A stretch of 41,011 nucleotides of DNA from an uncultured Bacilli bacterium (GTDB lineage Bacteria > Bacillota_I > Bacilli_A > RF39 > UBA660), in the NCBI GenBank assembly GCA_947628985.1, contig CANRCA010000003.1, positions 1-41,011 on the forward strand, written 5' to 3'. This document shows positions 34,549 to 41,011 of this stretch, piece by piece (position 1 is the first letter of the stretch; the number at the start of each line of letters is the position of its first letter). The notes beneath the pieces are model-generated. The model saw nothing but the letters and a program-made list of their open reading frames with translations. It did no database searches and was not told where the DNA came from. Made by a program: the position numbers and the translations under genes.

Positions 34549-34577
34549 TTGACAAAGCATTAAAAATATGGTATGAT
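34549..34577 (+). promoter_or_regulatory. Sigma-A promoter of ole-oapA
   Basis: TTGACA-17nt-TATGAT with extended TG; predicted start 34583-34585 coincides with the 5' strand of the RNA closing stem. Confidence 0.85.
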
Positions 34578-34582
34578 TAAAT

Positions 34583-35040
34583 GCGTATGGAGCACTATGC
34601 TAGTCAAACATACCACTAGAAGATGGGGCTAAAAATCCATTAATTGTACAAAAGTGAGACTTTATATATTTTGCTTCTTTCGCCCAGATTGGGGTGAGTA
34701 TATAATTTTAGATTTAAGGATATTATGCAATGGCATGTATATGAATCCTTTTATCAAATCGAGTGTATATGAACGTACATGTCGTGAGTGATTTATTGGG
34801 ATAGAAATTGAAAAATAAATTGCAAAAGCGAATAAAAGTGAATTATGTTTGTTTGGGAAAACCTCTAGTGTGTCTATATTATAAGGATTGAAGTGCGGAC
34901 TAAGTGGTGATCGAGTGATCATTATGGTAACAAATGATTTATAATTTTAAAGAGAAATCGCCTACGGGTAACTAAGGGTAATTATGAGAGAAATTCAACT
35001 CGACCAAAGCCGTAAAATTAATTTATAATATTCCATGCAA
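34583..35040 (+). ncRNA. ole: OLE RNA (ornate, large, extremophilic), compact variant
   Basis: GC-elevated stretch with no + strand ORF directly upstream of oapA; 5' GUAUGGAG pairs with 3' UUCCAUGC; blocks resembling OLE consensus as I recall it (CUAGU..CCACUAG, GGGAAAACCUCUAG, GGAUUGAAGUGCGGACUAAGUGGUGAUC, CGCCUACGGGUAAC). Confidence 0.88.
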
Positions 35041-35059
35041 ATTTTTTCTAGGAGATAAA

Positions 35060-37574: not shown

Positions 37575-37835
37575 ATGAAAGAAAAATTTATATTTAAAGA
37601 TGAAAAACAATTATATTCTACAATAGGAAAAAATATAAGATATTATAGAAAATTATATAGTTTAAATAAAAAGGAATTAACACAAGAAGCACTTGCTGAA
37701 ATTGCAAATGTATCTACTTCTCTTATTGGAAATTTAGAAAGTAAAAAAACTTATCAAGGGATAAGTATATATAATTTATATAAAATAAGTAATATTTTAG
37801 AAGTTCCTATTGAAAACTTTTTTATTGATCGTTAG
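37575..37835 (+). CDS. XRE-family HTH regulator
   Basis: IGKNIRYYR...LTQEALAEIANVSTSLIGNLE; AGGAG RBS. Confidence 0.9.
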   Translation: MKEKFIFKDEKQLYSTIGKNIRYYRKLYSLNKKELTQEALAEIANVSTSLIGNLESKKTYQGISIYNLYKISNILEVPIENFFIDR

Positions 37836-38085
37836 AATTAATTGGTTCAAAAAATTTTTCTATTGAAGTATTTAATACTATAGAAATTTTATATAATGTT
37901 ATTAAAGCTAATCCTTCACTACCTTTAGTACTTTCAAATTTTCTAATGAATTCAGGCGATACGCCTACATCAACTGCTAGTTGTTCTTGAGTAATCTTAT
38001 TAATTTTTCTATATTTGATAACATTATATGCTACTGTTTCTATAATATTTTCATCAAAATCAAATTCTCTTTTAAATTTTGTCAT
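37822..38085 (-). CDS. XRE-family HTH regulator
   Basis: NVIKYRKINKITQEQLAVDVGVSPEFIRKFE; AAGGTG RBS. Confidence 0.9.
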   Translation of the reverse strand: MTKFKREFDFDENIIETVAYNVIKYRKINKITQEQLAVDVGVSPEFIRKFESTKGSEGLALITLYKISIVLNTSIEKFFEPINSNDQ

Positions 38086-38133
38086 AAAATCACCTTATCT
38101 ATAGATAATTTTACACATTTTTATTTCAATTTT

Positions 38134-38154
38134 ATGTAGAGTGATACTATACAT
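38134..38154. promoter_or_regulatory. Palindromic candidate operator between divergent XRE genes
   Basis: ATGTAgAGT-gat-ACTaTACAT, 8 of 9 positions symmetric. Confidence 0.5.
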
Positions 38155-38192
38155 TTTTAAAATTTTATTTTATAATAAATTAGGTGATGTTA

Positions 38193-38441
38193 ATGACACA
38201 AGATGAATTAAATCGTATTATTGGTAAGAATATAAAAAAGTATAGACTTTTATATAATAAAAATCACTCAAGGATGACGCAAGAAAAATTAGCTGAAGCA
38301 ATAAATGTTTCTGTTTCTTTAATAGGTAGTTTAGAAAGTAATAAAATTAATAAAGGTATAGGAATTGTGAATTTATATAAAATTTCTGTTATACTAGAAG
38401 TACCAATAAATAAATTTTTTGAGGTGAATGATGATAAATAA
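38193..38441 (+). CDS. XRE-family HTH regulator
   Basis: IGKNIKKYR...MTQEKLAEAINVSVSLIGSLE; start MTQDE after AGGTGA. Confidence 0.9.
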   Translation: MTQDELNRIIGKNIKKYRLLYNKNHSRMTQEKLAEAINVSVSLIGSLESNKINKGIGIVNLYKISVILEVPINKFFEVNDDK

Positions 38442-38865
38442 ATTAATTAATAAAAATAATTTAACTAATAAAGAGGAACTTAATGATATATGTAATAATA
38501 TATTTTTAAAAAAGAAAAATGTTGATACCTTCTTAATAAATCTTGATAATTATATAACGTTTTTAAAAAAATATTTAACAATAGATTATAATGATTTACT
38601 TTATATTATATTTAATACTATTAATAATGATATGTATAATTCAATTATTAAAAAAGAAAAAGAATTTAAAAAGATATTTTTATTGAAATACAATGAAAAT
38701 ATCGAATTTATATCAATTTTTATGAAATTAAAGAAAAGAAATTTTAATAATTTAATAACTCATTTAAATAATTGCAAGAGAAGATGTTATACATATTTTG
38801 AAGATATTGGTTTAAGAAATTTAAAGTTTTATTTAGCATTATTTCAAGAATTAGAAACTAAATAA
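38431..38865 (+). CDS. Hypothetical protein, overlapping the XRE gene
   Basis: About 144 aa; GAGGTG RBS within the upstream XRE gene. Confidence 0.65.
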   Translation: MINKLINKNNLTNKEELNDICNNIFLKKKNVDTFLINLDNYITFLKKYLTIDYNDLLYIIFNTINNDMYNSIIKKEKEFKKIFLLKYNENIEFISIFMKLKKRNFNNLITHLNNCKRRCYTYFEDIGLRNLKFYLALFQELETK

Positions 38866-39931
38866 ATACATCATACATATTTTTATAAGTGAAAGTTACT
38901 CTATTAGTTCCTTTCTTTTTTTCTTTTATTAAATATCCTTCTTCTACTAATTTATTTAAAACTTTATTAACTGAATTAATATGTAAATTACATTCTTTAA
39001 CTAAATCATTAGTAGTAAATACTATTTTTTTAACAATTACTGGATATACTTTATAAATAGTAGTTCCACCAATTTTATCTTTAAATTCTTCTAAGTCATT
39101 ATTGTATATTTTATTTAATTTTTTGATTTTTTTAATATTTAATAAACATTGCTCTTTAATACATTCTAAGATTGTTTTAATAAATTTATTTATATCATCA
39201 TTAGAATCAGCAGATAATAAAGTAAAATAAGTATTTTTTAAATTTTCTAAACTTTCTGATATGAATAAAATTGGAACTTCTTTTTTATAATATGATAATT
39301 GCATAGGAATAAATAATCTTCCTAATTTACCATTACTTGAAACATAAGGATGTATTTTTTCTAATTGAAAGTGTGACAAAATTACAGAAATAAAATCAGG
39401 ATCTGTATTTTCATTTATATATTCTATTAAGTTTTTCATTAAATCATTAATATCTGTATATACTGGTGGAACATATGAAACACTAGAACCAGCTAAACCT
39501 GGTTTTAATAAAAATGTTTGAATTTTTCTAAATTTTCCACTAGCTTTTGTTTTATTATTTTTTTTACAATTTATAAACATTGATTTATTTATTTTATTAA
39601 ATGTATCAATATCTATTTTTCCATTTGATATATCATTGATACCAATTAATAATGATTTTTTTAAATTATTAAATTGAATAACATCATTATTTTCTATCAT
39701 ATATGGAGTGTGAAACATATATTCTTTTTCTATTTTACTACCATCTATTTTAAATGAATAGAAAATATCAGAAGTAAATGCACATTCTAAAAATGATTTA
39801 TAATCATATGCCATGCTTTTTAAAAATCCTTTATATTCACCATAGATTTCTTCTGTTTCACATATTAATTTTATTAATTCATATGATTTATCATATTCTA
39901 AAGGTAATTTTTTTGCTTTATATGGTTCCAT
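38858..39931 (-). CDS. Fic-family protein with C-terminal winged HTH, non-canonical motif
   Basis: SFKIDG, GKFRKIQ, YVPP, HFQLEKIHPYVSSNGKLGR; C-terminal VNKVLNKLVEEGYL. Confidence 0.88.
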   Translation of the reverse strand: MEPYKAKKLPLEYDKSYELIKLICETEEIYGEYKGFLKSMAYDYKSFLECAFTSDIFYSFKIDGSKIEKEYMFHTPYMIENNDVIQFNNLKKSLLIGINDISNGKIDIDTFNKINKSMFINCKKNNKTKASGKFRKIQTFLLKPGLAGSSVSYVPPVYTDINDLMKNLIEYINENTDPDFISVILSHFQLEKIHPYVSSNGKLGRLFIPMQLSYYKKEVPILFISESLENLKNTYFTLLSADSNDDINKFIKTILECIKEQCLLNIKKIKKLNKIYNNDLEEFKDKIGGTTIYKVYPVIVKKIVFTTNDLVKECNLHINSVNKVLNKLVEEGYLIKEKKKGTNRVTFTYKNMYDVFI

Positions 39932-40001: not shown

Positions 40002-40364
40002 TTAATATGGATTTGGATAATCTAATAATCCATCACCCGAACCATTAACCCAATAAATTTTATTACCTTTAATTTTAAAATCATAATTTATTTTATATTT
40101 TTGTTTTCCATCTGTATTTTTATATATAAAAGTTATATTAGTATTTCCATTTGATTTTGGTATGAATACCCATTTATTATTTTCTTCTGTTTTTAACTCT
40201 AGATTATTATTACTTAATTCATAATACCATTTATAACCTTCTTCTTTAAAATCATATTCTATTGTAACTTGATCAGAATATTTTAATAAATAATTAGGTT
40301 TATAAAAAAATAATATAAACACAAGTAGAATAGCAGTAATTCCAAAAATTATATAATATCTCAT
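40002..40364 (-). CDS. Small membrane-anchored protein, possible chagasin/I42-like Ig fold
   Basis: N-terminal TM; GYKW...WVFIP...GNTNITFIY pattern; AAGGAG RBS. Confidence 0.65.
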   Translation of the reverse strand: MRYYIIFGITAILLVFILFFYKPNYLLKYSDQVTIEYDFKEEGYKWYYELSNNNLELKTEENNKWVFIPKSNGNTNITFIYKNTDGKQKYKINYDFKIKGNKIYWVNGSGDGLLDYPNPY

Positions 40365-40379
40365 AACACTCCTTTATAC

Positions 40380-40416
40380 ACAAAAAGCAACCAGCCCTGA
40401 TAAAGCTTGATTGCTT
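40380..40416 (-). terminator. Intrinsic terminator ending the candidate RNA
   Basis: Minus strand AAGCAAUCAAGC...GCUGGUUGCUU followed by UUUGU. Confidence 0.75.
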
Positions 40417-40608
40417 CGAGTTTTCGAAAAAAGAATTATAATCATTTATATTAAAGAATTTGGCTTTAATATAAATACTTCTAAATATTATCAGTATTTA
40501 GCATAATTTCTTATCATTTTGAGTTTTACTTTCTCAACGATATATCATTTGTCCTTAGTAGATAAGTATTCTATTTCTTAAATTAATAAGATTATTATTA
40601 TTTATACT

Positions 40609-40752
40609 TTATTGTAATTCTATACATAAATAACTAATAAATTAATATTAATTATAAACATATAAATATTATCAACAATTTTATTGTAATTTTATATACA
40701 AATAACTAATAAGTTAATACTAATTATAAATATACAAATATTATCAATAAAT
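40609..40752. repeat. Two tandem imperfect 72-bp repeats, each a long hairpin
   Basis: 40609-40680 versus 40681-40752, 63/72 identical by manual alignment. Confidence 0.92.
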
Positions 40753-40882
40753 TTTATAAATTAATAATATTATAGAATTTTTTCACACGATAATTTTTAA
40801 TATGTTTCATCAATTTAAACTAAATATTTAAATTTAATAAAAATATATAGAATACATATTTTATTATCTATTGGACAATTAT

Positions 40883-40911
40883 ATTTTATCAAGTATAAAA
40901 ATTGTTGTCAA
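40883..40911 (-). promoter_or_regulatory. Sigma-A promoter of the candidate RNA
   Basis: TTGACA-17nt-TAAAAT with extended TG on the minus strand. Confidence 0.82.
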
Positions 40912-40976
40912 CACTTTTTTGAAAATTTTGTCAATTTTTTGTTACAATTCACAGTCGATAAGAAAGAGCTAAAATA

Positions 40977-41000
40977 AAAATGTAGGAAAACCTGCATTTT
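40977..41000 (-). terminator. Probable terminator of a gene beyond the window edge
   Basis: Minus strand AAAAUGCAGG-uuuu-CCUACAUUUU hairpin (one mismatch) with U tract. Confidence 0.5.
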
Positions 41001-41011
41001 TATATGGACTT

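Follow-up and report, generated by a model that had tools for sequence, protein, structure and literature searches.

Two tandem hairpin units on the minus strand

The window analyzed here is the whole 41,011-base contig CANRCA010000003.1 of an uncultured Bacilli bacterium (RF39, UBA660) from the 1.06-Mb, 95-contig assembly GCA_947628985.1, rated 67.8% complete; its G+C content varies from about 15 to 29% across 1-kb windows, that of the genome being about 20%. Near one end of the window two 72-nt units, directly adjoining and with no spacer between them, form long hairpins on the minus strand. They are followed on the same strand by a full-length match to the PGK RNA motif (Rfam RF03040), located 35 nt 3' of unit 1, and then by a terminator-like hairpin and the genes of a 120-aa protein and a Fic-domain protein. 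The 72-nt hairpins are not free-standing: they lie in the internal variable domain of one larger RNA, a context missed by the initial annotation of the window. This RNA is predicted to occupy ~495 nt of the minus strand, from ~40876 to ~40382, between a promoter and a terminator. We are highly confident of the identity and the strand of the hairpins.

With Tandem Repeats Finder, the repeat is detected at 40608-40757 with a period of 72 (2.1 copies, 88% matches, score 237). When unit 40609-40680 was set against unit 40681-40752, the earlier count of nine differences in 72 positions was confirmed; on the plus strand, C/T accounts for seven of them, and A/G and T/A for one each. An identical 29-pair hairpin is formed by the two units on the minus strand (-17.6 and -17.9 kcal/mol), the folds of the plus strand amounting to -2.2 and -6.5 kcal/mol. 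The 144 nt taken together yield -37.0 kcal/mol on the minus strand (z -5.76, none of 200 dinucleotide shuffles being as stable) vs. -9.6 kcal/mol on the plus strand (z +0.70, 148 of 200 shuffles as stable). Followed pair by pair through the shared hairpin, each of the seven stem differences exchanges an A-U pair of one unit for a G-U pair of the other; the remaining two differences lie in the hexaloop (UUAAUU vs. UUAACU) and at the unpaired base 2, and the UU/UU internal loop is identical, all of which agrees with what the initial annotation had read from the letters. Seven substitutions placed randomly in the stem keep every pair in 0.006% of trials if any change is allowed and in 3.6% if only transitions are; because of the latter figure, the window taken alone provides no more than suggestive evidence of selection for minus-strand pairing.

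The comparative data (covariance model, covariation, and G·U vs. A·C counts) turn this into a strong case. For comparison, 52 loci of the same genus, whose sequences are related by descent, were collected. A model built from the two local units (R1) aligned mostly positions 18-59 in the relatives and was replaced by R2, a covariance model of 46 nt built from the hairpin cores of 16 units, with which both strands were searched with the filters off. At E<=0.1, R2 gave 56 matches in the 52 loci, all 56 on the strand of the PGK motif and 5' of it, and no match in 10 of the loci; the local units score 54.7 (unit 1) and 50.6 bits (unit 2). In the alignment fitted to R2, 98.2% of the cells are paired vs. 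86.6% in shuffles, 13 of the 16 pairs show changes on both sides, and double changes occupy 63 cells vs. 12.9 expected; slid controls of the same alignment are paired in 25-49%. The initial annotation had proposed that stem substitutions placed at random in homologous repeats would speak against it, and such a pattern is not seen.

A strand-neutral count was also made, in which the units were anchored at the apex, the arms were left ungapped, and G·U and A·C were treated alike in defining the extent of the stem. G·U exceeds A·C by 37:6 among 36 units and by 55:11 among 47 distinct units; of the 60 stem G's in the latter set, 55 are opposite U and five opposite C, none being opposite A or G. 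The binomial p-value of 3.6e-8 for G·U vs. A·C is overstated since the sequences share descent, although the direction is clear. In most relatives the conserved core hairpin comprises just 16 pairs with internal loops on either side, and the 3' U's of the internal loop are invariant in the 16-unit alignment. Judging from these comparisons, the pairing of the hairpins is evidently under selection on the minus strand of the window, as the initial annotation had supposed. The locus exemplifies how divergence between repeat copies that is restricted to A-U/G-U exchanges identifies the transcribed, structured strand at ~20% G+C.

By BLAST, the identity to loci L017, L014, and L001 is 91-95% over 44-47 nt for unit 1 vs. 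80-86% for unit 2; by sequence, unit 1 is the copy nearer to the single units of relatives.

The enclosing RNA

The features of the locus are collected in Table 1.

Table 1. Elements of the predicted minus-strand RNA, listed 5' to 3', and the genes that follow it
Feature	Position	Strand	Remarks
Sigma-70-type promoter	40883..40911	(-)	TTGACA, 17-nt spacer, TAAAAT, extended TG; 11/12
Closing helix, 5' strand (GUCC..UAGAUAA)	40864..40876	(-)	At the very 5' end of the predicted RNA
5' hairpin of the variable domain	40820..40837	(-)	UUAAAU hexaloop; third UUAAnU hairpin of the locus; aligned loop of relatives UUAAUU
Single-stranded block GUGUGAAAAAAUUCUAUAAU	40769..40788	(-)	Nearly invariant (GUGAAAAA..UCUAUA) in a 12-locus alignment of the genus; predicted unpaired
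Hairpin unit 2, PGK-distal	40681..40752	(-)	29 pairs, UU/UU internal loop, UUAACU hexaloop
Hairpin unit 1, PGK-proximal	40609..40680	(-)	29 pairs, UU/UU internal loop, UUAAUU hexaloop
Mini-hairpin CUUA-UUAAUU-UAAG	40577..40590	(-)	Same hexaloop; conserved in the genus alignment
PGK RNA motif (Rfam RF03040)	40481..40573	(-)	82.9 bits vs. gathering score of 50.8; model positions 1-92/92
Closing helix, 3' strand (CUUAUCUA..GGACAA)	40549..40566	(-)	Inside the PGK motif
Joining helix, strand AAUUAUG	40502..40508	(-)	Between PGK helices; pairs with 40434-40440
PGK 3' hairpin loop CUGAUAA	40488..40494	(-)	Exact complement of terminator loop UUAUCAG (40397-40403)
Second variable hairpin	40442..40477	(-)	3' of the PGK motif, 5' of the joining-helix partner
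Joining helix, partner UAUAAUU	40434..40440	(-)	3' of the second variable hairpin
Intrinsic-terminator-like hairpin and U tract	40382..40414	(-)	Loop holds UUAUCAG (40397-40403); read from the sequence
120-aa protein gene	40002..40364	(-)	Hydrophobic N-terminus; start codon ~20 nt past the terminator
Fic-domain protein gene	38858..39931	(-)	C-terminal winged-helix region; Pfam Fic E 1.4e-9

The score of the PGK match lies well above the Rfam gathering score, and the two 72-nt units (40609-40752) are outside the 92-position model. The position of the promoter would place the start of the RNA near G40876. The promoter scan as a whole was not enriched (16 sites vs. 14.9 +/- 4.2 in shuffles); at this place TTGACA and the -10 box are kept in the relatives, with an A-rich tract upstream. 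A simple terminator scan missed the hairpin at 40382-40414, probably since its 9-base loop exceeds the maximum of 8 used in the scan. The unconstrained minimum free energy (MFE) fold of the 505-nt RNA includes the closing helix, the mini-hairpin and the two 72-nt units.

Contigs from RNA libraries (four runs of four studies; 68-436 nt) were compared with positions 40300-41011 at a likeness of at least 85%. Most of them are less than 95% alike, i.e., they come from relatives, and they cover mainly 40480-40591; one contig of 436 nt also reaches 40629-40652, with 192 other letters intervening.

Upstream of the promoter, within 40912-41011, another terminator-like hairpin is located at ~40974-41003 of the minus strand. 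In the relatives, a gene similar to those of [FeFe]-hydrogenases (as judged by conserved peptide motifs) ends just upstream on the same strand, and the contig studied here stops before it.

Long-range contacts

Three long-range contacts are predicted to hold the RNA together. The first, the closing helix, would pair GUCC and then UAGAUAA (40876-40864) with CUUAUCUA..GGAC (40566-40551). The GGAC(AA) part belongs to a stretch that is unpaired according to the Rfam consensus line, and CUUAUC overlaps the 5' strand of the Rfam helix P1. Both strands vary together: GACC/GGUC in L010, L019, and L022, GUAC/GUAC in L011, GUUC/GAAC in the second copy of L018, CUUAG/CUAAG in several genera, AACCUAGAUU/AAUCUAGGU in L057 and GUAUCUUGA/UCAAGAUAC in L064. 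Since the register of the 5' helix strands varied from genus to genus in a MAFFT alignment of 54 RNAs, duplex permutation tests were used instead of pair counts. An initial comparison of cognate with other duplexes, performed on 50 near-identical instances, was uninformative: in 8 of the 50 rows no other duplex was better than the cognate one. The test itself was made on 34 distinct types, after removal of eight instances in which the promoter pattern had matched inside the hairpin array; the cognate mean was -8.72 vs. -5.11 +/- 0.41 kcal/mol for permuted partners, and none of 20000 permutations reached the cognate value. The UAGAUAA strand and the 3' strand of Rfam P1, GAUAAG (40515-40510), are both complementary to CUUAUCUA, so that two mutually exclusive pairings are possible, of which the MFE fold chooses the one with the 5' strand.

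The second contact involves the 3' hairpin loop of the PGK motif. A complement of this loop is present not more than 320 nt downstream in 76 of the 79 distinct instances with a recognizable loop, a U tract being next to it in 74, and is present in none of 82 upstream controls. Its variants again match each other: CUGACAA/UUGUCAG in L070, CUAGUAA/UUACUAG in L063 and CUGACAU/UGUCAG (6/7 bases) in L061. These sequences suggest that the PGK motif and the loop of its own terminator are in kissing contact.

The third contact, the joining helix, has a cognate mean of -5.41 vs. -3.32 +/- 0.24 kcal/mol, none of 20000 permutations of 37 distinct types being as low, and many of its variants are compensated. 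Pairing of the UUAAUU loop with AAUUA of the PGK joining strand was considered and dropped, that strand being paired with its downstream partner. UUAAUU as such is not self-complementary; just its 4-base halves are.

The hexaloop and the number of arms

The region from the promoter to the PGK motif was folded (MFE) in 41 distinct same-genus instances, and hairpins of at least 8 pairs were recorded irrespective of their sequence; L032, in which a run of N covers most of the unit, was excluded from the counts. The hexaloop UUA[AG][ACU]U was found in 83 of the 112 hairpins (53 UUAAUU, 13 UUAACU, 13 UUAAAU, and four others), and in none of the 289 hairpins formed by 150 random segments of this genome with a G+C content of not more than 14%. 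The length of the variable domain ranges within the genus from 156 to 655 nt. Three domains contain no UUAAnU hairpin, 13 contain one, 18 two, 2 three, 4 five, and one domain six. Two, i.e., the 5' hairpin and one unit, is the commonest state; this genome, with the 5' hairpin and both 72-nt units, is among those with three. The second 72-nt unit is not required, given the 13 domains with one UUAAnU hairpin and the 18 with two.

Each local unit has the other as its closest match (0.89, the values elsewhere being 0.70 and 0.74), a sign of lineage-specific duplication. In the pairs L016/L018 and L020/L043, the units resemble their positional counterparts across species more than their neighbors in the array, which indicates that the longer arrays were inherited; arrays of 5-6 copies are kept across species, and the stems within old arrays diverge to 50-60% identity. 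The copy number comparison asked for by the initial annotation (0-6 UUAAnU hairpins per domain, three in this genome) and the closeness of the local units bear out its view of a duplicated module.

No further copy of the unit was detected by BLAST in the 1.06-Mb assembly, the other matches being of not more than 29 nt (E >=0.013). When R2 was applied to five whole genomes, it matched at PGK loci only, among the 150 of ~7000 candidates scored per genome.

Distribution and gene context

The PGK motif was found in 46 of 50 genomes of the genus and in 28 of 151 genomes of the order sample (this genome counted in both), the latter across 17 of 87 genera; none of the 16 genomes of other families in the initial draw contained it. 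What follows the RNA in the window is not a phosphoglycerate kinase gene but the gene of the 120-aa protein and then that of the Fic protein. The former has sub-threshold matches only in Pfam and none in NCBIfam; its orthologs, of 117-126 aa, come after the RNA in most same-genus loci. Since its start codon lies ~20 nt after the terminator, expression of the gene 3' of the RNA in this genus requires read-through.

In PADLOC, the Fic protein corresponds to SoFic (PDLC03963, E 1.5e-54) over positions 8-357 of the 361-position profile. Among the loci compared, a SoFic-like gene is linked to a PGK-type RNA only in this genus: of the 149 other genomes in the sample, 17 encode homologs of SoFic, and none of these 17 loci has the PGK motif. 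A single marginal hairpin match at such loci of other genera proved to be an unrelated inverted repeat. Beyond the Fic gene lies typA. Between them, at 37575-38441, both strands carry three open reading frames for Xre-type helix-turn-helix proteins (85-87 aa) and a 145-aa frame assigned to no family; in L002 typA comes directly after the Fic gene, and therefore this block looks like an insertion.

Some genomes harbor more than one PGK-type RNA. Two are located 0.8-1.2 kb apart in L002, L011, L016, L018, L042, and L044; in the first four of these loci one RNA precedes the gene of a small membrane protein and the other the Fic gene, and in L002, L004, and L005 a PGK-type RNA stands immediately before the Fic gene. 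Genomes G008 and G016 have two copies on separate contigs. A divergent PGK-like sequence (41-42 bits, under the gathering score) constitutes a second locus in some genomes (L050, L051, L052, and L066); its 3' loop is a different one, and UUAAnU hairpins are lacking.

In other genera the RNA is associated with other genes. In genus g40 (L053 and L055) the PGK core lies upstream of a phosphoglycerate-kinase-like gene, and overall the genes 3' of PGK-type RNAs, named from their N-terminal sequences, are pgk-, murG-, SpoIVA-, sigma-factor- and transposase-like ones as well as Fic. In L071 the 600 nt downstream contain no co-directional gene, and L061 has two tandem RNA copies with no gene between them. 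A cis-regulatory leader would be expected to combine a structured domain with an intrinsic terminator right before a coding region, and this is what is found here (~20 nt to 40364), but the downstream genes show no consistent functional relation. Because these genes differ between genera, a simple riboswitch-like leader is disfavored.

The window contains another structured RNA: OLE RNA (Rfam RF01071) is matched over its full length (model positions 1-616, 216.1 bits) on the plus strand at 34571-35052, ~5.5 kb from the hairpins. Two large structured RNAs, OLE and the PGK-type RNA, are thus encoded within 6 kb of a small AT-rich genome.

Proposed role of the hairpin arms

The explanation that we consider reasonably probable is that the 72-nt units are tandem, genus-specific hairpin arms in the variable 5' domain of a PGK-core RNA, serving as docking arms that present their loops. 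The closing helix, joining the 5' end of the RNA to the PGK core, would seal the variable domain, while the joining helix and the loop-loop complementarity would tie the core to the 3' part. Each arm would fold independently and present the hexaloop on AAUA/UAUU closing pairs; the hexaloop, together with the U-rich 2x2 internal loop near it, which may be part of the site, would form a docking site for a partner, most likely a protein. Duplication of arms would raise the number of sites, so that arm number would set the valency. The whole RNA might be a terminator-controlled leader of an operon for the small membrane protein and Fic, or a stable RNA in itself. The docking role taken separately is putative, and we put it forward tentatively.

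Several points weigh against this explanation. The R2-fitted alignment is shaped by the model and its sequences are not independent, so that the p-values overstate the case. The genes downstream of PGK-type RNAs vary between genera. With one UUAAnU hairpin in 13 of 41 domains and two in 18, the second 72-nt unit is dispensable, and the MFE survey found the hairpin absent in three of the same-genus domains. Other genera with the PGK motif have different long hairpins at the equivalent place, and R2 gave no match better than E 0.3 in their variable domains. The single-locus result covers only the 1.06 Mb assembled of a genome rated 67.8% complete, and that for the whole genomes rests on 150 of ~7000 first-look candidates scored per genome. 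The RNA-library contigs cover mainly the PGK core of relatives and carry no information on strand, ends or transcription. As to docking, we infer it only, no partner of the hexaloop having been found.

Tandem duplication might also simply have been tolerated in a neutral expansion segment, in which the hairpins need only to fold on themselves and spare the core, neither their copy number nor their loop having a role of its own. The broad range of variable domain lengths within the genus (156-655 nt), the unrelated hairpins at this place in other genera, the prevalence of domains with one or two UUAAnU hairpins (13 and 18 of 41) and the young age of the local duplication, the units being 88-89% alike, are all in line with this idea, which is the main competitor of the docking-arm explanation. 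Self-folding alone, however, leaves the invariant loop and the U's of the internal loop unexplained: the hexaloop is kept in 83 of 112 hairpins vs. 0 of 289 in the background, despite stems reduced to 50-60% identity in old arrays, and arrays of 5-6 copies are maintained across species. We therefore regard neutral expansion as rather unlikely. A comparable architecture is known from RNase P RNA, tmRNA, rRNA, OLE, ROOL and GOLLD, which likewise have a core closed over a long range and a periphery gaining and losing self-contained hairpins; unlike the expansion segments of those RNAs, the arms described here have been amplified in tandem and their loop is invariant. No Rfam match to any of these six RNAs was obtained in the hairpin region, OLE being a separate locus.

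The units could instead act in processing or stability, as duplexes that are cut by an RNase III-like enzyme or slow down decay, thereby determining the abundance or the termini of the RNA. Substrates of RNase III are usually in the range of 29 pairs, and the 29 pairs of each unit, interrupted by a single 2x2 internal loop, as well as the base-paired 5' end predicted for the RNA, would suit such a function. In most relatives, though, the core hairpin has only 16 pairs between internal loops, and RNase III does not need a conserved loop sequence; the RNA data, being contigs only, are unable to reveal cleavage products. On balance this function is improbable.

An antitoxin-like unit, also suggested by the initial annotation, is disfavored and in our opinion very improbable. 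It would imply an RNA of the type III toxin-antitoxin kind, whose repeats restrain the downstream SoFic-like Fic protein, the terminator setting the ratio. Promoter, tandem repeats, terminator and gene is the order of ToxIN-type loci, which the locus resembles, the second downstream gene encodes a Fic-domain protein similar to the SoFic defense protein, and in L002, L004, and L005 the RNA directly precedes it. As in ToxI, there are tandem RNA repeats, a terminator and a gene; here, however, the units are hairpins, and with a single UUAAnU hairpin in 13 of 41 domains and two in 18 a repeat array is not a constant trait. Neither of the two downstream proteins is ToxN/AbiQ-like by Pfam or PADLOC, elsewhere the RNA core is found before pgk, murG, and further genes, and none of the 17 SoFic-homolog loci of other genera has the PGK motif or a convincing hairpin.

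Less probable still is an element acting at the DNA level (palindromic protein-binding sites, a cruciform or iteron-like repeats), which we disfavor. The apex AATATTAATTTATT is AT-rich and partly palindromic, and several Xre-type helix-turn-helix proteins and a winged-helix domain are encoded nearby; but each G·U pair would be an A·C mismatch in DNA or on the plus strand, the latter folds no better than shuffles, the counts of 55:11 (G·U:A·C) and 56:0 (R2 matches by strand) are asymmetric, and arms of 29 pairs far exceed the length of an operator. Finally, the insertion here of a dispersed hairpin repeat (REP, MITE or Ssn/NTS type) or an assembly artefact is largely refuted: misassembly can create tandem repeats, but the copies differ at nine sites, which is unexpected from misassembling one copy, and, whereas a dispersed repeat would occur many times at unrelated places, the assembly contains no further copy, R2 matched only PGK loci in the five genomes (150 of ~7000 candidates scored in each), and the place relative to the PGK motif is fixed in 42 same-genus loci. 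Nor does the repeat resemble a CRISPR array, as its units abut and include no unique spacers.

The docking-arm explanation has a parallel of design in the sponge RNAs CsrB, RsmY, and RsmZ, non-coding RNAs ending with a terminator and likewise carrying a variable number of stem-loops with one short loop. The loops of CsrB and RsmZ are GGA, in contrast to UUAAUU, UUAACU or UUAAAU here, and the likeness concerns design only, no CsrA-type partner having been sought or found.

Relation to the described PGK motif and significance

The PGK name probably derives from the location of the motif upstream of the phosphoglycerate kinase gene. Our searches of the literature on the PGK motif and RF03040 returned nothing relevant, and among the entries listed for a UUAAUU hairpin loop none concerned bacterial RNA. 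The motif itself comes from the screen of Weinberg et al. (2017; PMC5737381), whose main text does not mention PGK, while its supplement may describe extra structure. As compared with the Rfam model of 92 positions, the locus studied here matches it over its full length and on the strand of the hairpins; the model itself lacks the hairpins, the 5' strand of the closing helix and the terminator, and the downstream gene here is not pgk.

Higher-order RNA assemblies have been reported for other large bacterial RNAs. A more far-reaching possibility, which we regard as unlikely, is that the 92-nt PGK motif is the core of an RNA of 0.4-0.8 kb held by three covariation-supported long-range contacts, one of them kissing its own terminator loop, and that the genus-specific tandem array of arms with an invariant UUAAnU hexaloop would be a multivalent platform, either recruiting several copies of one partner or linking RNAs into higher-order assemblies, with the number of arms (1-6) tuning the valency.

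The predicted contacts, the natural series of 1-6 arms and the defined loop offer experimental handles, such as compensatory mutants for the three contacts and use of the loop as bait. The PGK motif has been filed as a short orphan cis-regulatory element, whereas this locus reveals it embedded in a much larger fold, one peripheral domain of which has been amplified while a fixed hexaloop was retained. Catalogue models can thus truncate real RNAs.

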